A DNA stretch of 61,228 bases from contig CAKOJI010000003.1 in assembly GCA_934089255.1 (NCBI GenBank), positions 1 to 61,228 of the forward strand. The letters run 5' to 3'. This document shows, one piece after another, positions 1-17,159 of the stretch. Numbering within the stretch: the first letter of the stretch is position 1; each line of letters starts with the position of its first letter. Both the position numbers and the translations under genes were made by a program. Under the pieces are notes generated by a model that had not been told where the DNA came from, made no database searches, and saw only the letters and a program-made list of their open reading frames with translations. This DNA is from an uncultured Bacilli bacterium (lineage in GTDB: Bacteria > Bacillota_I > Bacilli_A > RF39 > UBA660).

Positions 1-86
1 ATTTACTAATTAATTAAACAAGAGTGTCACTTACAAAGGGTAGACATTTCTTTCTTAAATGTTCTACTTAATATAAGTTTATCATA

Positions 87-113
87 AAGTACTTGAAAAG
101 TGTACTTTTTTTG
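87..113 (+). terminator. Rho-independent terminator of a gene that ends upstream of the window
   Basis: aagtac/gtactt stem with a 9-nt loop, followed by a T-run. Confidence 0.45.
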
Positions 114-221
114 TTATATTTTTATTAGGGTAGTAAACTACTCAAAATACCAAAGTTGGAACTGGCGAGTCTTTAAGTGATTATATTTATTTAATTTTGT
201 TCCTGTAGAGATAATACAAAT

Positions 222-527
222 ATGTATGTAGGAACATTAACGGCAGATGAAATGTCATTCGCAGGTGCAACTGGTTCAACTAATTATACTCATTATTTAA
301 TGAACAGTTATGCAAAGAGTAATTATTTATCTTGGTGGGGGCTTTCTCCGGGCAGTTATGATGCTGAGTATGGTCGCGATAACGCATTCGCCGTGTTCAG
401 CGATGGCAGCTCGGACGACAACTATGTATACAACGTCGGCTCGTTCCGTCCCGCAGTAACTCTCTTGTCTTCCATAATTATAAAAACAGGAAATGGAACT
501 ATATCAAATCCTTATGTTGTTTCGTAA
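222..527 (+). pseudogene. Orphan C-terminal cassette (101 codons) homologous to the last ~100 residues of the 9800..11425 protein. It lacks a signal peptide and an N-terminal domain.
   Basis: Shares LTADE[MV]SFAGA ... WW..SP ... FRP ... G.GT.SNPYV with 9800..11425. An in-frame stop lies at 192..194, and there is no Shine-Dalgarno before ATG 222. It contains its own GC-rich island at 341..460. Confidence 0.5.
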
Positions 528-587: not shown

Positions 588-1358
588 ATGACAGTATATG
601 TGGACCTAGTTTTTTTAATTAATTTTATTATAGATTTTTATATATTAAGTGGGGTAAAATTTATATTAAAAAGAAATACTAAGAATTATAGAATTATATT
701 AGGTACGTTTGTTGGTAGTTTATCTATTTTTTTATTATTTTTTAAATTAAGTACATTATTATTAAATTTATATAAAATACTAATTAGTATATTGATGATA
801 TTGTGTGCGTTTGGAAGAAAGAACTTTTTTACAAATATATTTTATTTATATATATTAAGTATAGTATTAGGTGGTAGTTTATATTTAATAAATGATTCTT
901 TAGGTTATAAAGTTAGTGGATATTTATTTATTAATAATGGTTATAGTATTAATTTAATAGTGTTAATTATTATTAGTCCTTTGATTATATATTTGTATGT
1001 TAAAGAGTTTTTAAAATATAAAAAGAGAATTAATACAGTATATGATGTAATAATAAAGATAGGTAAAAAGTGTATTAATGTATCTGGGTTTTTAGATACT
1101 GGTAATAAATTAATAGATCCTTATTTTTATCGGCCGATAATATTACTTAATAAAAAATATATTAAAATAAATAATAAAAACATAATTTATGTACCATATG
1201 ATTCATTAAATAATAATGGGTTATTAAAATGTTTTAAACCTGAATATATATTAATAGATAATAAAAAATATACAAACTGTCTTATTGGTATAATTGATAA
1301 TTTAAATGTGGATTGTATATTAAATGAAAGGATATTAGATTATGAAGAAAATAATTGA
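588..1358 (+). CDS. spoIIGA: Sigma-E processing peptidase SpoIIGA
   Basis: Polytopic N-terminus plus the GFLDTGNKLIDP aspartyl-protease motif. It overlaps the start of sigE. Confidence 0.9.
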   Translation: MTVYVDLVFLINFIIDFYILSGVKFILKRNTKNYRIILGTFVGSLSIFLLFFKLSTLLLNLYKILISILMILCAFGRKNFFTNIFYLYILSIVLGGSLYLINDSLGYKVSGYLFINNGYSINLIVLIIISPLIIYLYVKEFLKYKKRINTVYDVIIKIGKKCINVSGFLDTGNKLIDPYFYRPIILLNKKYIKINNKNIIYVPYDSLNNNGLLKCFKPEYILIDNKKYTNCLIGIIDNLNVDCILNERILDYEENN

Positions 1359-9799: not shown

Positions 9800-11425
9800 A
9801 TGAACAGAAAACAGAAGATTATAGTAAGTGTAACAGGAATATTTATAGTATTATTAATACTTGTAGGATTAACATATGCATACTTCTTAACTAGAATACA
9901 AGGAAATACTAATACTAAATCTATTTCAGTTACAACTGCAGATTTAAAATTAACATACGGAGATGGAACTAATCAAGTATTAGCACCAGATACAAAATTA
10001 CTTCCTGGTAGTGATGCAATAGGTACTAAGGATTTTACTGTTACAAATGAAGGAAACAGTAAAACTAGTTATGTAGTAGTAATTGAAGATGTAAGTATTA
10101 CTAAAAATGGTAGTACTACTACATTCGAATCTAATGACTTTAGATATACTTTAACTTGTACTAAAAAAGATGGTACAAAATGTGATGGGATTACATCACA
10201 AACAATATTTCCAATAAATGGTGGACTTTTAATATCAAATAGTGTAGATGTAAGTGATGTACAATCATACACATTAACATTATGGTATATAGATACTGGA
10301 ATAGACCAATCAAATGATATGGGAAAAACATATAATGCAAAAGTAAATATAAAAGATACTGATTCATTAACATTAAATAATCCATATAGAAATGAAACAG
10401 ATACATTAAAGAAAACTATAATAGATAATGCTATGATAGGAACTGGTAGTACTAAAATGGGTAGTGAAGTAACTACATTTACTAAAGTTTCAGGAGAAAA
10501 TGACAAACTACTTAATACAGCACCAGATGATTATGGTACAAGTTACTATTACTATGGAGCAGTAACAGATAATTATGTATCATTTGCAAATAAACTATGG
10601 AGAATAGTACGAATTAATGGAGATGGCTCAATAAGACTAGTTTTAGATGATGTTGCAAAAGATAGTAGTGGAAGTGTAATAGAAACTGAATTTAATCCAA
10701 ATTTTGATGATAATGCATATGTAGGATATATGTATGGCACAACAGGAAGTACAACATATGATGAAACGCACAGGAATATAAATGATAGTACAATAAAAAC
10801 AAATGTAGATAAGTGGTATGAAGATAATTTAAAAACAAATTATGCAAACTATTTATCAGATACATTATTCTGTAATGATAAAACACTTTCTTCAAGTGGT
10901 ATAGGTGAAGTGACAACACAACTTGGTTATGGAGCAAATAGAACATTTTATTCAACAACAGAAAGATTGGAATATAGTACAGGAACAACAGACATAACAA
11001 CTGCAAAGCCAACATTTAAATGTGCAGAAAGTGCAACAAATGATTATTCAAGATTTACAGTAAATGTCATAACACTACCAAATGGAAATAAAACAAATGG
11101 AAATTTAACATATCCAGTAGGACTACTAACAGCTGATGAAGTATCATTTGCTGGAGCATACAAAAGTGGTCAAACAAATAAATCATGTTATTTATACAAT
11201 TCTTCCATATCTTCTCGTTGGTGGCTTTCGTCTCCGGATTTTTATGGCGGTTCGACTGCGTTTGAGTGGGTCGTTTATGCATCGTATGGTTACTTCGGAA
11301 GCAATGACGTCGTCAACAGTGGTGGTGTCGATCCTGTCGCTTTCCGCCCTAGTATCAATCTAAAGGCTGAAACGCTTGTGAGTCAGGGTGATGGTACTAA
11401 ATCAAATCCTTATGTTATAAAATAA
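9800..11425 (+). CDS. Secreted protein with a SipW/TasA-type signal peptide. It has a TasA-like N-domain and a large C-terminal adhesin-like domain ending in a WW..SP...FRP module.
   Basis: The N-terminus MNRKQKIIVSVTGIFIVLLILVGLTYAYF matches the TasA/camelysin signal class. The N-domain is paralogous to 36310..37056 and 44943..45722. The C-terminus is homologous to 222..527. Confidence 0.8.
   Translation: MNRKQKIIVSVTGIFIVLLILVGLTYAYFLTRIQGNTNTKSISVTTADLKLTYGDGTNQVLAPDTKLLPGSDAIGTKDFTVTNEGNSKTSYVVVIEDVSITKNGSTTTFESNDFRYTLTCTKKDGTKCDGITSQTIFPINGGLLISNSVDVSDVQSYTLTLWYIDTGIDQSNDMGKTYNAKVNIKDTDSLTLNNPYRNETDTLKKTIIDNAMIGTGSTKMGSEVTTFTKVSGENDKLLNTAPDDYGTSYYYYGAVTDNYVSFANKLWRIVRINGDGSIRLVLDDVAKDSSGSVIETEFNPNFDDNAYVGYMYGTTGSTTYDETHRNINDSTIKTNVDKWYEDNLKTNYANYLSDTLFCNDKTLSSSGIGEVTTQLGYGANRTFYSTTERLEYSTGTTDITTAKPTFKCAESATNDYSRFTVNVITLPNGNKTNGNLTYPVGLLTADEVSFAGAYKSGQTNKSCYLYNSSISSRWWLSSPDFYGGSTAFEWVVYASYGYFGSNDVVNSGGVDPVAFRPSINLKAETLVSQGDGTKSNPYVIK
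11221..11350 (+). other. Adenine-depleted, GC-rich codon island inside the CDS (candidate hypervariable region)
   Basis: My hand count gives A17 T45 G39 C29 of 130 nt. It is full of codons that are rare elsewhere in the window (tcg, gtc, ggc, gcg, cgc, ccg). Confidence 0.5.
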
Positions 11426-12251: not shown

Positions 12252-13820
12252 TTGTATATAATTATATTTAATATATTGAGTTCGTTTTTGTATATATTTA
12301 TTAAAACTAAAAAGAATTTACATATGTTACAACAAAATTTTTATAATGAAAATAATAGATATATAAAGTGGGGTTATAAAAATTTTAATCAAGTTATTAA
12401 ATTAGATGTAGTAGTTTGTGTTATAAACTTAATTAATTTATTTTTTAAAAATAATATATTATGTTATAGTTTTTTATTATATTTAGTTTTTTATATTATA
12501 GAAAATAATAAATTAAAAAAAGAAACAGTTAAGATACCTTTAAAGGTTACTAATAGAATTAAACGTTTAGTTATGAGTATATGTTTATTGTATTTATTGA
12601 GTATAGTTTTATTAATTAAAAGTAAATATGAATATAATTTATTATTTAGTTTGTTAATATCTTTAAATTTTTATGTTGTATTTATTTCTAATATAATTAA
12701 TAAGCCTATAGAAAAGTGTGTATTTTTATATTATAAATTTAAGGCAATAAAGAAACTTAAATCTAATAAGAATCTTGATGTAATAGGTATAACTGGTAGT
12801 TATGGTAAGACTAGTAGTAAGAATATTTTAAATGATATATTAAGTGTTAAATATGATGTTCTTGCTACACCATTAAATTATAATACTGAGTATGGTTTAA
12901 TTTTAAGTATTAATAATTATCTAGATAAGTTTAATAATATTTTTATTGCTGAAATGGGTGCTTTTAAAATGGGTAGAATAGAAAAATTATGTAAGTTAGT
13001 TAAACCTAAATATGGAATAATAACTAGTATTGGTACTGCTCATTTAGAAACGTTTGGTAGTAGAGAAAATATACAAAAGGGTAAATTTGAACTTATTGAG
13101 AATATTAAAAGTGATGGTGTTGGAATTCTTAATATGGATGATCCTTATCAAGTAAGTTATAAGATTAAGAATAATTGTAAAATTATTTGGATTGGTATAG
13201 ATAGTGATGCTGATATTAAAGCTAGTAATATAAACATAGATTCTAATGGAATGAGTTTTGATGTATATTTTAAAGAAGATAAAGTAACACATACTTTTAA
13301 AACTAAATTGTTAGGTAAGGCTAATGTATATAATATACTTGCTGGTGTTGCATTTGGTAAATATATGGGTATGAATTTTAATGAGTTAGAAATAGGTGTT
13401 AAAAGGATTAAACCTATTACACATAGGTTAGAGTTAAAACGTATGAATAATTATACTATTATTGATGATGCTTATAATTCTAATCCAGTTGGTTCTAAGA
13501 TGGCGCTTGATGTTTTAAATTTAATGGATGGTGAAAAAATTGTTGTTACTCCTGGAATGATAGAGTTAGGTAGTGAGCAATATAGTTTAAATAAACAATT
13601 TGGTAAATATATTAGTGAAGTTGCTGATAATGTTATATTAGTTGGTGAAAAACAGACTAAGCCAATATTAGATGGATTAATTAGTAATAATTATAATATA
13701 AATAAAATTAAAATAATTAATGATGTAAGAGAAGCATTTTCTATAATAGATAGTATAAAAACTGAAAAAGAGAAATATGTTTTATTAGAAAATGATTTAC
13801 CTGATATATTTAATGAGTAG
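12252..13820 (+). CDS. murF: MurF-type UDP-MurNAc-tripeptide--D-Ala-D-Ala ligase with a ~170-aa polytopic N-terminal membrane extension
   Basis: GITGSYGKTSSK P-loop, AEMGAFKMGRIEKL, TSIGTAHLETFGS and IIDDAYNSNP. About 5 predicted TM helices precede the P-loop. TTG 12252 lies 9 nt after AAGGAG; the ORF track starts at GTG 12243. Confidence 0.8.
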   Translation: MYIIIFNILSSFLYIFIKTKKNLHMLQQNFYNENNRYIKWGYKNFNQVIKLDVVVCVINLINLFFKNNILCYSFLLYLVFYIIENNKLKKETVKIPLKVTNRIKRLVMSICLLYLLSIVLLIKSKYEYNLLFSLLISLNFYVVFISNIINKPIEKCVFLYYKFKAIKKLKSNKNLDVIGITGSYGKTSSKNILNDILSVKYDVLATPLNYNTEYGLILSINNYLDKFNNIFIAEMGAFKMGRIEKLCKLVKPKYGIITSIGTAHLETFGSRENIQKGKFELIENIKSDGVGILNMDDPYQVSYKIKNNCKIIWIGIDSDADIKASNINIDSNGMSFDVYFKEDKVTHTFKTKLLGKANVYNILAGVAFGKYMGMNFNELEIGVKRIKPITHRLELKRMNNYTIIDDAYNSNPVGSKMALDVLNLMDGEKIVVTPGMIELGSEQYSLNKQFGKYISEVADNVILVGEKQTKPILDGLISNNYNINKIKIINDVREAFSIIDSIKTEKEKYVLLENDLPDIFNE

Positions 13821-13833
13821 AAAGAAGGATTTT

Positions 13834-15009
13834 ATGAAGATTAAAGTTGGTGTTATATTTGGTGGAGAAAGTGTAGAACATGAAGTAAGTATAATTAGTG
13901 CATTACAAGCAATAAATAATATTGATAAAAATAAGTATATAGTAGTACCTATTTATATTTCAAAAGACAAGGTGTGGTATACAGGAAAAGATTTATGTGA
14001 TATATCTATTTATAATGATTTAGATAAAGTTAAAAAAAATTCTAAAAGTGTAAGTTTATGTAAGGTTGGTAATGAATACTATTTAATACAGACAAAAGGT
14101 TTATTAAATAAAATTGTTGATAAAATAGATATAGCTTTTCCTATTGTTCATGGACAAAATGTAGAAGATGGTTCTTTAGCAGGGTATTTAGAAACTGTTG
14201 GAATTCCGTATGTTGGACCTAATGTTCTTGGTGCTAGTTTAGGACAAGATAAAGTAGTTATGAAACAAGTATTTGAATCTTCTAATATTCCGGTAGTAGA
14301 TTATGTGTGGTTTTATGAAAGTGATTATATAAATGATGAAGAAAAATATTTAAGAGACATTAAAAAACTTGAGTATCCAGTTCTTGTTAAACCAGCTAGT
14401 TTAGGTAGTAGTGTAGGTATAAATTTTGTTAAAAATGAAAATGAAATAAAAGATGCAATAAATGAAGCTTTTACTTATGATGATAAAATTGTTGTTGAAA
14501 AAGCAGTAGAGAATTTAATTGAAGTTAATTGTAGTGTTTTAGGTGATAAGAATATGCAAAGTACTAGTGTAATAGAACAAGTCTTATCTAATAATCAAAT
14601 TTTAACTTACGAAGATAAATATATTGGAGATTCTAAAAAAAGTGGTGTAAAGAGTAAGGGTATGGCTAGTACTAATAGGATTATACCAGCTAGAATAAAT
14701 AAAGAGTTAGCTCATAGTGTAAGTAATATTAGTAAAGATGTTTTTAAAGTACTAAATTTAAGTGGAGTATGTAGAATAGATTTTTTAATTAATTCAAAAA
14801 CAAATGAAGTATTTGTAAATGAACCAAATACTATTCCAGGGTCTTTATCATATTATTTATGGGAAAAATCTAATATAAAATATAGTGAATTATTAGATAG
14901 ATTAATTAGTATTAGTATTAAAAATTATAAAGATAGAAGAAAAAAAGTATTTAGTTTTGATACTAATATATTAAAAAATTATAATAAAAATAGTGGTTTT
15001 AAGAAATAA
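13834..15009 (+). CDS. ddl: D-alanine--D-alanine ligase
   Basis: MKIKVGVIFGGESVEHEVS N-terminus and ATP-grasp motifs (LVKPASLGSSVGI, EPNTIPG). The start is set to ATG 13834; the ORF track starts at 13792, which would overlap murF. Confidence 0.9.
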   Translation: MKIKVGVIFGGESVEHEVSIISALQAINNIDKNKYIVVPIYISKDKVWYTGKDLCDISIYNDLDKVKKNSKSVSLCKVGNEYYLIQTKGLLNKIVDKIDIAFPIVHGQNVEDGSLAGYLETVGIPYVGPNVLGASLGQDKVVMKQVFESSNIPVVDYVWFYESDYINDEEKYLRDIKKLEYPVLVKPASLGSSVGINFVKNENEIKDAINEAFTYDDKIVVEKAVENLIEVNCSVLGDKNMQSTSVIEQVLSNNQILTYEDKYIGDSKKSGVKSKGMASTNRIIPARINKELAHSVSNISKDVFKVLNLSGVCRIDFLINSKTNEVFVNEPNTIPGSLSYYLWEKSNIKYSELLDRLISISIKNYKDRRKKVFSFDTNILKNYNKNSGFKK

Positions 15010-15074
15010 AGTGTATATTACTTTACATAAATTTTAAAAAATTTTAAATTTTGTATTTATTTTTTTAAAATATT

Positions 15075-15083
15075 TGATATAAT
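15075..15083 (+). promoter_or_regulatory. Extended -10 promoter (TGaTATAAT) for the sRNA candidate
   Basis: The TGATATAAT sequence ends 6-7 nt before the first base of the long hairpin. Confidence 0.45.
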
Positions 15084-15089
15084 AAATAT

Positions 15090-15194
15090 GCACAACAGAG
15101 TTCTGTATATACACTTAACTTTACTCACACTTTGTAATGATGTCGACAATTATGACAAAGTCCATATATGCGCCTTCTGTTGTGCTTTTTTTTT
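15090..15194 (+). ncRNA. Candidate ~105-nt small RNA: one long imperfect hairpin ending in a U9 tract
   Basis: GCACAACAGA (15090..15099) pairs with TCTGTTGTGC (15176..15185). Inner pairings include ACTTTGT/ACAAAGT. A T9 run follows at 15186..15194. The region has no ORF. Confidence 0.4.
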
Positions 15195-15217
15195 GCTTTA
15201 AATTATGTTAAAATTAA

Positions 15218-15270
15218 TTTGAAATGCGAATAATTATATTTTTAGACATAAAAGTGGGCTTTTAGACGTG
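15218..15270 (+). promoter_or_regulatory. Conserved upstream box (copy 1) with TTTTAGAC direct repeats
   Basis: tttgaaatgcgaataattatatttttagacataaaagt is identical to 19111..19148. A second TTTTAGAC repeat lies ~20 nt downstream. Confidence 0.5.
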
Positions 15271-15335
15271 TTTTTTAATTTAATTATAAAATTATGGTAT
15301 TGTATTTTACAATTTCAATTAGGGGAGTGATTAAT

Positions 15336-17159
15336 ATGTTAAAAGAAAAAACAGGATATGCAAGTATTGATAAACCTTGGTTAAAGTATTATCCTAACAA
15401 TGTGTATGAAACAGTTACAGAAAATGTTGATGAAAAAATATTTGATTTTATGCATTCAAAAAATATTGATGATTTAAATGATTATGCTTTAAGTTATTTT
15501 GGAAGAAAAATAACTTATACTGAAATGTTTAGCGAAATAGAAAATTATGCAAAAATACTTAAAGGATATGGAATTGGCAAAAATGATATAGTTTCATTAT
15601 GTTTACCTAACATTCCAGAAACAGTGTATTTAAAATATGCTTTAAATAGAATTGGTGCTATTTCTAATATGATTGATCCTAGACAAAGTAGTCAAAATAT
15701 TTTATCTTTTGTAAATGATACAAATTCTAAATTATTATTTTGTATTTTGGATGCTTGTGAGTTAAAAATCAATCCTATAATAGATAAATTAAAAGTTGAT
15801 GATGTTGTTATTTTAAGTGTTTCAGATTCGTTAAATATGAATACTAATTTGACATCTTCTATAGTAAATTTGATGTATAAAATCAAAAAAAATGATTATA
15901 TAAATAAAAATAAAAATTATAAAAGTAAATATAAATTTAATGATGATTTAAATAAATTCTATACTGATTATTTAAATGTTGATACTAATTATGAACCCGA
16001 TGATGTTGCAACAATAATGTACACTAGTGGTACAACAGGTACAGCAAAGGGTGCTATGTTAACTAATGAAGCTTATAATACAATGCATAATCAATTACAA
16101 TATACAGCTGATTTTAGAAGAAAAGATACTTTTTTTGGAGCTATTCCATTCTTTTCGGCATATGGTTCTTTTTGTGGAATGCATAATTCGTTGTGTTCAG
16201 GACAAGAAATAATTTTGTTACCTAAAATTGATCCAAATAAAATAGATAAAGTATTGTTAAAATATAAACCAAATATATCTTTCTTGGTTCCTGGATATTG
16301 GGAAAGTTTTAGCAATAGTAAAAAAGCGAATAAAAAAGATTTATCATATATGAAAATTATTGTTGCCGGAGGAGATAAATGGGCGCCTGCATCAATTAAT
16401 ATTGTTAACGATTTCTTGAAAAAACAAAATTGCGAACATAAAGCAAGAGTTGGTTATGGTGCAACAGAATTTGGTGGTGCTGTCTCAGTTGTTCCTGAAA
16501 GTGATTTATATATAGCAGGAAGCGCTGGTTTAGTTTTACCATCTTGTAATGCAATGGTAATTGATAGAGAAACTAATGATGAATTGAAATATAATGAGAT
16601 AGGTGAGATTTGTATATCATCTCCAACAATGATGAAAGGTTATATAAACAAAGAAGAAGAAACTAATCAATTAGTTATTGTTAAAAATAATGAAAAATTT
16701 TATAAAACTGGAGATCAAGGATATATTAATGAAGATGGAATTATTTTCGTTATTGACAGATATAAACGTTCAATGATGAGACCAGATGGTCATACAGTGC
16801 ATGCAACTCCAATAGAAAATACAATTTTAGAAAATGAAAATGTCGAAAAATGTTGTGTTGTTGGTTTAAAAATTGGAGATAAGGCTGGAGATATCCCTAC
16901 TGCATTTATTAAAGTAAAAAATAAAACTAATATAGAAGACTTTATAAATGAATTAGATAATTATTGTTTAAAATACTTAGCTGAAAGGGATAGAGCATTA
17001 GCATATGTTTTAATCGATGAAATGCCATATAATCTAATGGGAAAAATTGATTATAGAAAATTAGAACAAATTAATATAAAAGACTTAGATATAATAATTG
17101 TTGATAATACATTTTTTAGGGAAAAAAGTAATAAAAAAATATTAAAATTACAAAAATGA
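15336..17159 (+). CDS. Acyl-adenylate-forming enzyme (ANL superfamily, acyl-CoA/ACP-synthetase-like)
   Basis: YTSGTTGTAKGA AMP-binding motif, GYGATE and TGD. The N-terminal SIDKPWLKYY is shared with 19225..21570. The start is set to ATG 15336 behind AGGGGAG. Confidence 0.8.
   Translation: MLKEKTGYASIDKPWLKYYPNNVYETVTENVDEKIFDFMHSKNIDDLNDYALSYFGRKITYTEMFSEIENYAKILKGYGIGKNDIVSLCLPNIPETVYLKYALNRIGAISNMIDPRQSSQNILSFVNDTNSKLLFCILDACELKINPIIDKLKVDDVVILSVSDSLNMNTNLTSSIVNLMYKIKKNDYINKNKNYKSKYKFNDDLNKFYTDYLNVDTNYEPDDVATIMYTSGTTGTAKGAMLTNEAYNTMHNQLQYTADFRRKDTFFGAIPFFSAYGSFCGMHNSLCSGQEIILLPKIDPNKIDKVLLKYKPNISFLVPGYWESFSNSKKANKKDLSYMKIIVAGGDKWAPASINIVNDFLKKQNCEHKARVGYGATEFGGAVSVVPESDLYIAGSAGLVLPSCNAMVIDRETNDELKYNEIGEICISSPTMMKGYINKEEETNQLVIVKNNEKFYKTGDQGYINEDGIIFVIDRYKRSMMRPDGHTVHATPIENTILENENVEKCCVVGLKIGDKAGDIPTAFIKVKNKTNIEDFINELDNYCLKYLAERDRALAYVLIDEMPYNLMGKIDYRKLEQINIKDLDIIIVDNTFFREKSNKKILKLQK

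Follow-up and report, generated by a model that had tools for sequence, protein, structure and literature searches.

A G+C-rich cassette at the start of the window

The first nucleotides of the window (the whole stretch of DNA that was analysed, 61,228 nucleotides in length) raise the question of why a short ORF that resembles only the end of a much longer gene should hold a G+C-rich patch in an extremely AT-rich genome. Our analysis of this ORF, hereafter the cassette, leads us to consider it, at a probability of roughly 0.8, a 5'-truncated, rearranged and non-functional remnant of a surface-protein gene that retains the fossil of a DGR variable region (VR). The features on which the first part of the argument depends are the following.

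334..458, + strand: G+C island of the cassette, a putative former DGR variable region, from TGGTGG (WW) to the IMH-like motif CCGTCCCGCAGT
9800..11425, + strand: full-length family member of 541 aa, with an N-terminal membrane/signal segment followed by a C-terminal DUF6273-like module
11219..11345, + strand: second G+C island, a putative former DGR variable region of the 541-aa gene, as judged by TR comparison

The ORF at 222..527 comprises 101 codons (101 aa) from an ATG start, and an in-frame TAA lies at 192..194, 27 nucleotides 5' of that ATG. A previous interpretation of this locus (the sequence-only reading) had described both, and its base count for positions 341..460 (A24 C33 G33 T30, 55% G+C) is exact. 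The mean G+C content of the genome is 24%, as determined from a 1.10 Mb assembly in 49 contigs that is 73% complete, the genome being put at approximately 1.1-1.2 Mb. When G+C was calculated per 100 nucleotides, the fraction peaked at 0.54 at 351..450 and reached 0.47-0.52 at 11201..11400, with values of 0.15-0.33 in the flanks, which had been correctly reported as AT-rich. The G+C island of the cassette is far outside chance expectation.

Comparison of the cassette product with the 541-aa protein demonstrated 42% identity to the last ~100 residues of the latter, which bears out the claim that nothing but the C-terminal module of 9800..11425 is reproduced in the ORF. Protein identity is 50-63% to the C-termini of full-length paralogs from the same genome and 70-78% to full-length proteins from elsewhere. 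A conserved C-terminal region spans ~300 residues, and the ORF accounts for just the final ~100 of these; its product has no signal peptide, and the family homology begins at approximately position 207, that is 15 nucleotides before the ATG (RDNTN-MYVG). A Pfam search gave no match for the cassette ORF itself, its own match being below threshold, and a profile search against solved structures gave no match. AlphaFold produced poor models both for the cassette, at pLDDT 58, and for residues 226-541 encoded by the full gene, at pLDDT 43.

The module belongs to a large family. A tblastn search located ~24 copies in the same genome, most of which form the ends of 540-650-codon genes and many of which lie at contig ends; a comparable G+C island is present in 11 of the ~24. 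More than 6,000 homologues of the family occur in public assemblies, and some full-length homologues carry precomputed PF19789 (DUF6273), PF12389 (camelysin-type) or PF07963 (prepilin-type) matches. Weak matches to DUF6273 were obtained in 5 of the 24 aligned C-terminal modules (best E=5.7e-4). In published work DUF6273 figures as a C-type-lectin-like domain that DGRs target, and its C-terminal end holds the variable region (PMC10743442, PMC11792537). The weak similarity, taken together with this literature, suggests that the variable domain of the present family may adopt a C-type-lectin (DUF6273) fold.

BLAST provided no DNA-level alignment between the two window islands (341..460 and the island of 9800..11425), as the sequence-only reading had stated. 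The four-codon difference that it gave for the spacing between WW and FRP also stands, although the actual numbers of intervening residues are 35 in the cassette and 39 in the 541-aa protein rather than 37 and 41.

Intact DGRs in the genus and the origin of the islands

RVT_1 is present in 10 of the 15 other genomes of the genus, and three same-genus genomes (G002, G003 and G005, at loci L032, L033 and L038, respectively) contain classic DGRs on orthologues of this family. The elements are ordered as target gene, MutS-like small ORF, TR, Avd-like ORF and RT. The RTs (333-393 aa) match RVT_1. Similarity of the Avd-like ORFs to the Avd model, and of the MutS-like ORFs to the MutS model, is weak and falls below threshold. 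The TRs lie 3' of the target gene and are AAC-rich and otherwise adenine-poor. Mismatches between VR and TR fall at TR adenines in 19 of 19 cases in G002, 20 of 21 in G003 and 15 of 16 in G005, and the VR/TR homology begins at the WW codons and ends in a G+C-rich motif located immediately 5' of the conserved (F)RP..L scaffold. These results show that the protein family is a genuine DGR target in three same-genus genomes.

Additional repeats were observed in two of these relatives. A non-adjacent VR in G003 (L104, G003:C31:856-983) differs from the G003 TR at 13 of 39 A sites and 1 of 89 non-A sites, a mismatch pattern which indicates that DGRs of the genus also act on non-adjacent copies, and a second TR-like copy, 94% identical, is located at C10:33319-33440 of the same genome. 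In G005 (G005:C37, L038:8522-10727) three tandem TR-like repeats of ~360 nucleotides each, 82-84% identical, are interspersed with a 299-aa ORF. A single repeat of the three matches the adjacent VR with adenine-only differences, and the others may template remote paralogs.

When the window was compared with the active DGRs of L032 and L038, both window-island limits were found to coincide with the limits of VR/TR homology. The motif CCGTCCCGCAGT occupies 447..458 and is the same sequence that ends the VR of L032 in G002, the L032 TR having A for the final G; a G+C-rich IMH-type 3' VR boundary is thus present in the cassette by sequence. Scored against foreign TRs only, the cassette VR displays a moderate adenine bias (p ~0.003), with mismatches at 48% of TR adenines and 17% of non-adenine sites relative to the L032 TR (p=0.004) and at 49% and 21%, respectively, relative to the L038 TRc (p=0.003). 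An equivalent comparison of the 541-aa VR with the G003 (L033) TR gave mismatches at 61% of TR adenines and 10% of non-adenine sites (Fisher p=9.5e-9). Third-position C is found in 47% of the 38 VR codons of the cassette versus 6% of the ORF's other 63 codons, and in 1% of codons in the housekeeping genes adjoining the ORF; this NNC pattern is the expected leftover of AAC-codon mutagenesis. We infer from these comparisons that a DGR once wrote this particular cassette VR. That the G+C island marks a former DGR variable region can in part be shown and in part be presumed from the relatives. The proposal of the sequence-only reading that some process repeatedly rewrites this segment is upheld to the extent that the relatives' DGRs and the adenine-biased mismatches identify the segment as the variable region in a family of DGR targets.

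The islands could have arisen as follows. The RT of a DGR would copy an AAC-rich, otherwise adenine-poor TR, erring at adenines, and the resulting cDNA would replace the WW..(F)RP stretch, thereby introducing NNC and adenine-free scaffold codons into a gene of 24% G+C. Since different paralog subfamilies would each have their own TR, the islands would be independent of one another, occupying the same structural position and yet being unalignable.

Horizontal transfer, or amino acid composition only, might instead account for the G+C islands without a retroelement. The stretch is indeed rich in Gly, Ser, Asp and Tyr, and its G+C content is sharply unlike that of the host. This explanation is scarcely credible, however, because the synonymous third positions are shifted as well, the scaffold codons on either side have host composition, the limits of the islands are those of TR homology, the mismatches relative to the relatives' TRs are adenine-biased, and TR-like templates exist in L032 and L038.

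DGR machinery in the genome carrying the cassette

A profile search detected no RVT_1 in the 73%-complete assembly of the genome itself, and tblastn of the same assembly with the relatives' proteins found no intact RT, Avd or MSL, but only an RT tail. BLAST with both islands located no TR, and nothing more than ~70% identical to 341..460 occurs elsewhere in the genome. Analysis of the mismatch spectrum in pairwise comparisons of 24 family C-terminal copies and of the genome matches revealed no adenine-specific repeat pair. Queries from the relatives identified no TR-spacer homologue in the assembly, only TR-upstream homologues at C7 and C23. At 73% completeness, an intact DGR and the cognate TR could sit in the missing part of the genome, which counts against reading the cassette as a relic.

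A single DGR locus is recognisable in the assembly, and it is degraded.

C16:13003-16176: degraded DGR locus, consisting of a target gene (13003-14856), an IS30-like gene (15065-15802) and an RT tail (15919-16176)

The IS30-like transposase gene has HTH_38 and rve domains, and the RT remnant consists of the last 86 codons, which are 60-68% identical to the relatives' DGR RTs. No MSL, TR or Avd is left at this locus, and the C16 target protein is not on record in other assemblies. From this arrangement the DGR locus appears to have been destroyed, with the IS30-like gene standing where the DGR genes belong. After this loss of the RT, the cassette VR would be frozen and would drift by ordinary mutation.

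Two orphan C-terminal copies were observed elsewhere in the genome, namely L012 (C7:9930-10287, the copy itself at 9930-10235) and L010 (C23:14919-15180), each located right after a full-length family gene. Both are preceded by a homologue of the G003 TR-upstream sequence (86% and 80% identical, respectively) and have a diversified body and a coding 3' end. The C7 orphan is 90% identical to the C43 gene across the VR. These orphans probably result from crossover between TR and VR, which would have deleted avd and RT.

Anatomy and chromosomal setting of the cassette

The sequence around the start of the cassette is a composite of several family-derived pieces, which together with the downstream neighbour are listed below.

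1..148, + strand: non-coding 5' module common to family genes, located ~130-280 nucleotides 5' of the start codon in intact copies
149..184, + strand: family coding scrap (KVGTG.SLSDY), located ~58 codons 5' of the junction in intact paralogs
182..207, - strand: inverted copy of the 26 nucleotides directly 5' of the junction in intact paralogs
207..527, + strand: retained 3' end of the family gene, its last ~106 codons (RDNTN at 207-221, after the stop at 192-194; ORF at 222..527)
588..1358, + strand: spoIIGA (Peptidase_U4), the conserved downstream neighbour and synteny anchor

The non-coding module is 95-98% identical to copies in the same genome at C22:17103-17192, C37:7840-7950, C47:1-133 and on C12. 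In those copies it is followed by a G10-11 tract, a TATAAT box, an RBS and the start ATGAAT(A/C)G(A/T)AAACA, all of which are missing from the cassette. Window positions 152-184 match the coding strand of the C1 paralog (88% over 33 nucleotides, E=6e-6), and 182..207 matches C1, C17, L041, L042 and L054 at 100% over 25-27 nucleotides, in reversed orientation and just 5' of GAGATAATACAAATATG. On this anatomy the cassette is best described as an orphan, promoter-less and scrambled deletion remnant. A later deletion-inversion, as suggested by the junction, would have removed a phase-variable-looking promoter, the start codon and ~400 to 500 codons, thereby fusing the upstream non-coding module to the last ~106 codons. 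A candidate sigma-70-like site (TTGAAA-16-TATATT) is present at 93..120, 5' of the ORF, so that transcription of the cassette, for example by read-through, is possible; the cassette ORF is nevertheless likely to be unexpressed or non-functional.

A 100-kb contig from another sample (L017), which is 99.97% identical over 3 kb, runs 10 kb upstream of the window. These 10 kb hold genes for UDG, a SPOUT methylase, DnaB and ribosomal proteins and nothing that corresponds to the N-terminal part of the cassette gene, and this is the outcome of the inspection of upstream sequence that the sequence-only reading had proposed. Six more strain-level contigs carry the same cassette (L018, L019 and L086-L089). 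In all five of these that reach far enough (L018, L019, L087-L089) the cassette lies directly 5' of spoIIGA, and L086, which also extends 5' of the window start, stops 29 codons into an uncharacterised downstream ORF.

Window position 1 is itself a contig end (C3:1), and the ORF might consequently represent an intact gene of which the assembly boundary has left just the 3' end, or the product of a chimeric join. Such an artefact would fit the many family copies at contig ends and the several strain contigs that break within the repeated 5' module at ~83-88. The same junction is, however, found in independent assemblies from other samples; L086 also passes the window start, and L017 spans 10 kb upstream without an N-terminal part. 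The contig artefact that the sequence-only reading had named as fatal to its proposal has therefore not materialised, as L017 reproduces the junction, and we regard it as extremely improbable.

A ~32-codon ORF with a hydrophobic product is located between UDG and the cassette (L017:9630-9730), immediately 5' of window position 1. Its 3' end and the following sequence recur 5' of the C37 and C47 family genes, which indicates that the repeated 5' module is longer than its window part.

Related genomes also hold family sequence at this position. In G004 and G002 a family gene of at least ~300 codons lies directly 5' of spoIIGA, both loci ending before the 5' parts of these genes, and truncated family pieces occur 5' of spoIIGA in G011 (in the UDG-spoIIGA interval), G006 and G010. 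These copies are only ~40% identical to the cassette and may not be orthologues in the strict sense. The remaining nine genus genomes displayed no family copy in the ~1.5 kb fetched 5' of spoIIGA.

Variation among strains

Analysis of the strain contigs demonstrated 0-1 differences in the cassette VR of L017, L018, L019, L088 and L089, despite the fact that spoIIGA diverges by 2-2.7% in L088 and L089. A second VR haplotype is present in two strain contigs, L086 and L087. L086 has five VR substitutions and a 7-nucleotide duplication that results in a frameshift, and L087 has the five substitutions of L086 and five more, giving 10 in the 120-nucleotide VR versus 3 in the ORF's other 186 nucleotides. 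Approximately half of the second-haplotype changes fall where related TRs have a base other than adenine, and half are GC-to-AT. Because of this graded series, the non-adenine sites and the GC-to-AT changes, the second haplotype has the look of ordinary mutation in a stretch that is rich in G+C and under weak constraint, and not of retrohoming. Against the relic reading, the VR changes of L087 exceed the prediction of uniform drift. Conversion from a paralog of the same genome was also considered as a source of the second haplotype and was rejected, as no paralog matches better.

The ORF is open in 6 of the 7 other strain contigs. Strain substitutions within it are non-synonymous and synonymous at 13:6 versus 13:16 in spoIIGA, a difference that is not significant (Fisher p=0.14), and one of the variants, G92V, changes a family-invariant glycine. 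The L086 frameshift, G92V and the 13:6 count (p=0.14) are read as possible signs of relaxed constraint on the cassette. The three synonymous-only differences of L018 were discarded as a signal of selection, since this contig was found by exact-protein look-up and is subject to ascertainment bias.

These results bear upon the possibility that the cassette still serves on its own as a live, remote DGR target, with a DGR in the unassembled 27% of the genome or in other strains retrohoming into 334..458. Such a target would need just an IMH-like 3' end and homology to a TR. The IMH-like motif is preserved and does not differ from that of the active L032 VR, non-adjacent DGR action occurs in the genus (G003:C31), the changes in the second VR haplotype are clustered, and DGR targets that are multiple and remote from their retroelement, including very short, lectin-only ones, have been documented (PMC5758913). 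We nonetheless consider this explanation unlikely. The genome yielded no TR within 70% identity and no intact RT, and the VR is unchanged in five contigs despite up to 2.7% divergence next door. The second haplotype is graded (5, then 10) with about half of its changes at non-adenine positions, while a DGR event normally rewrites most variable sites together, as seen in P0154-P0162. In addition, the product lacks a signal peptide and consists of just the last ~100 of ~300 conserved residues.

Exchange between the cassette and its paralogs

A search of 5.8 billion proteins with a composite query, in which only the cassette part was scored, found no full-length carrier of the cassette VR, the best match being 78% identical. 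In the best full-length matches (P0154, 78%) a near-perfect scaffold is combined with an entirely different VR, as expected of a DGR-diversified family. P0154 was considered as a syntenic counterpart of the cassette and was rejected, as its gene sits after mutL.

The VR of the 541-aa protein shows 0-1 amino acid change in four strain alleles that differ at 1-23 residues overall. Exchange between the cassette and the full-length gene, which the sequence-only reading had proposed to look for, was not encountered; none of the four strain alleles is a chimera of 222..527 and 11100..11425. Together with the near-invariant VR of five contigs, this comes close to the state of no variation and no exchange that the same reading had regarded as incompatible with its proposal.

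In three 541-aa alleles (P0030, P0031 and P0033) a block of 11-15 amino acid changes was observed at residues 103-156 (window 10106-10267). At every site checked by eye this block has the sequence of the C16 paralog, and the VR is unchanged. The pattern points to gene conversion between paralogs, which is suggested to have occurred in the N-terminal domain of these alleles.

Orphan-sized ORFs of ~103 aa that start at the same MY(V/I)GTLTADE motif were also observed in other assemblies, at L093:5149-5460 and L090:3229-3540. One of the two lies between gerA and a marR-type gene with its N-terminal part missing, and the other lies 245 nucleotides 3' of a 413-aa ORF and may belong to a split gene.

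The cassette could alternatively act as a silent donor that is copied by homologous recombination into expressed paralogs, in the manner of pilS or vls, and thereby swaps binding tips. The cassette is a partial copy that lacks a promoter, and the scaffold on its flanks is highly conserved among paralogs. Gene conversion between paralogs is seen (the block at residues 103-156), there are further orphan copies (C7 and C23, with L093 in another species), and the C7 orphan and the C43 gene are 90% identical over the VR. Still, among 5.8 billion proteins no full-length one carries the cassette VR, and the differences are concentrated in the VR itself. No chimera with 11100..11425 occurs in the four strain alleles, the cassette is single with no array beside an expression site, and a frameshift and changes of invariant residues are tolerated. 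A donor function is therefore quite improbable. Similarly doubtful is the broader idea that the orphan cassettes (this one, C7, C23 and L093) form an archive of diversified binding tips that are recombined into expressed paralogs; if true, recombinational variation would be layered on DGR mutagenesis and would outlast the loss of the RT.

Of the three options offered by the sequence-only reading, the decayed paralog is thus favoured, and the second DGR target and the silent donor are not, on the results for TR, RT, hypervariability and mosaic alleles. The decayed paralog follows from the scrambled 5' junction with the family promoter, start codon and N-terminus missing, from the failure to find a cognate TR or intact RT in the assembled genome, from a VR unchanged in five strain contigs and frameshifted in one strain, from the lack of any full-length protein with the cassette VR, and from the fuller or truncated family copies 5' of spoIIGA in relatives. 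The open ORF in most strains, the sigma-70-like site at 93..120, the documented short, lectin-only DGR targets (PMC5758913) and the moderate degree of the adenine bias weigh against it.

Relation to known systems

The family shares a C-terminal VR in a DUF6273-like module with the C-type-lectin-like DGR targets of gut phage and of a Faecalibacterium prophage (PMC10743442, PMC11792537). Also shared with the DGR/DUF6273 systems are the AAC-rich TR, adenine-specific substitutions (in relatives) and a G+C-rich IMH-like VR end. The MutS-like, Avd-like and RT cassettes of the relatives correspond to architecture D of Wu et al. 2018 (PMC5758913), and multiple, non-adjacent targets (in relatives) are a further likeness to known DGRs. 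Unlike the phage DUF6273 targets, the present family is cellular, has very many paralogs and possesses a TasA/camelysin-like or prepilin-like N-terminal segment. The cassette itself differs from DGR/DUF6273 targets in having no TR, RT, N-terminus or promoter.

In cyanobacteria, VR paralogs that are frozen and DGR cassettes that have degraded next to transposases are both known (PMC7517822). Like the cassette, the paralog all3226 of Nostoc PCC 7120 has retained VR-type sequence although no RT lies close to it, and the RT of Anabaena sp. 90, with transposases on its flanks, resembles the DGR of the present genome eroded beside an insertion sequence; the dispersal of the variable protein within the genome is common to both groups (PMC7517822). 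Unlike the cyanobacterial frozen VRs, the cassette is cut to ~100 codons and has an inversion-deletion junction, and the contrast between 55% and 24% G+C shows the fossil by eye. It is an informative relic within the DGR/DUF6273 system and no new mechanism. The patch, at 55% G+C against 24% for the genome, is interpretable as fossilised codon rewriting by a DGR, and the 'orphan cassette' as what a deletion left behind. A rule for extremely AT-rich genomes may be formulated accordingly, in that short, adenine-poor, NNC-rich islands ending DUF6273-like modules mark present or past DGR targets, and this rule is usable even where the RT and TR are lost.

Silent partial cassettes serve recombinational antigenic variation in Neisseria (pilS), Borrelia (vls) and Mycoplasma genitalium (MgPar). 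The present cassette resembles these in being promoter-less and partial and in representing the variable end of a surface protein with conserved flanks. It differs from them in that no mosaic expressed allele was found, that it exists as a single copy, and that it is drifting and is frameshifted in one strain.

Proposed variation devices of the surface-protein family

The family context outranks the cassette in interest, as it concerns a human-gut bacterium with ~24 copies of a surface-protein family. Three devices of variation appear to operate on this family, namely DGRs (shown in relatives), G10-11 tracts (as candidates) and gene conversion (as suggested by the 541-aa alleles). The family also shows the loss of DGRs by an insertion sequence and, probably, by recombination between TR and VR.

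Eight G/C homopolymer runs of at least 8 nucleotides were observed in the genome, all of which are G10-11 tracts followed by TATAAA..TATAAT.

C12:131-140, C16:12937-12947, C22:17264-17273, C31:11788-11798: G10-11 tracts
C37:8053-8062, C5:29069-29079, C13:6444-6453, C27:394-404: G10-11 tracts, continued

These tracts are candidate slipped-strand phase-variable promoters of the surface family. Within the genome, the pairing of such a tract with TATAAT is restricted to the 5' sides of eight family genes. Five of the eight lie 45-60 nucleotides 5' of recognisable surface-family start codons. The C13 tract is located just 5' of a family gene, and the C5 and C27 tracts have a common downstream sequence.
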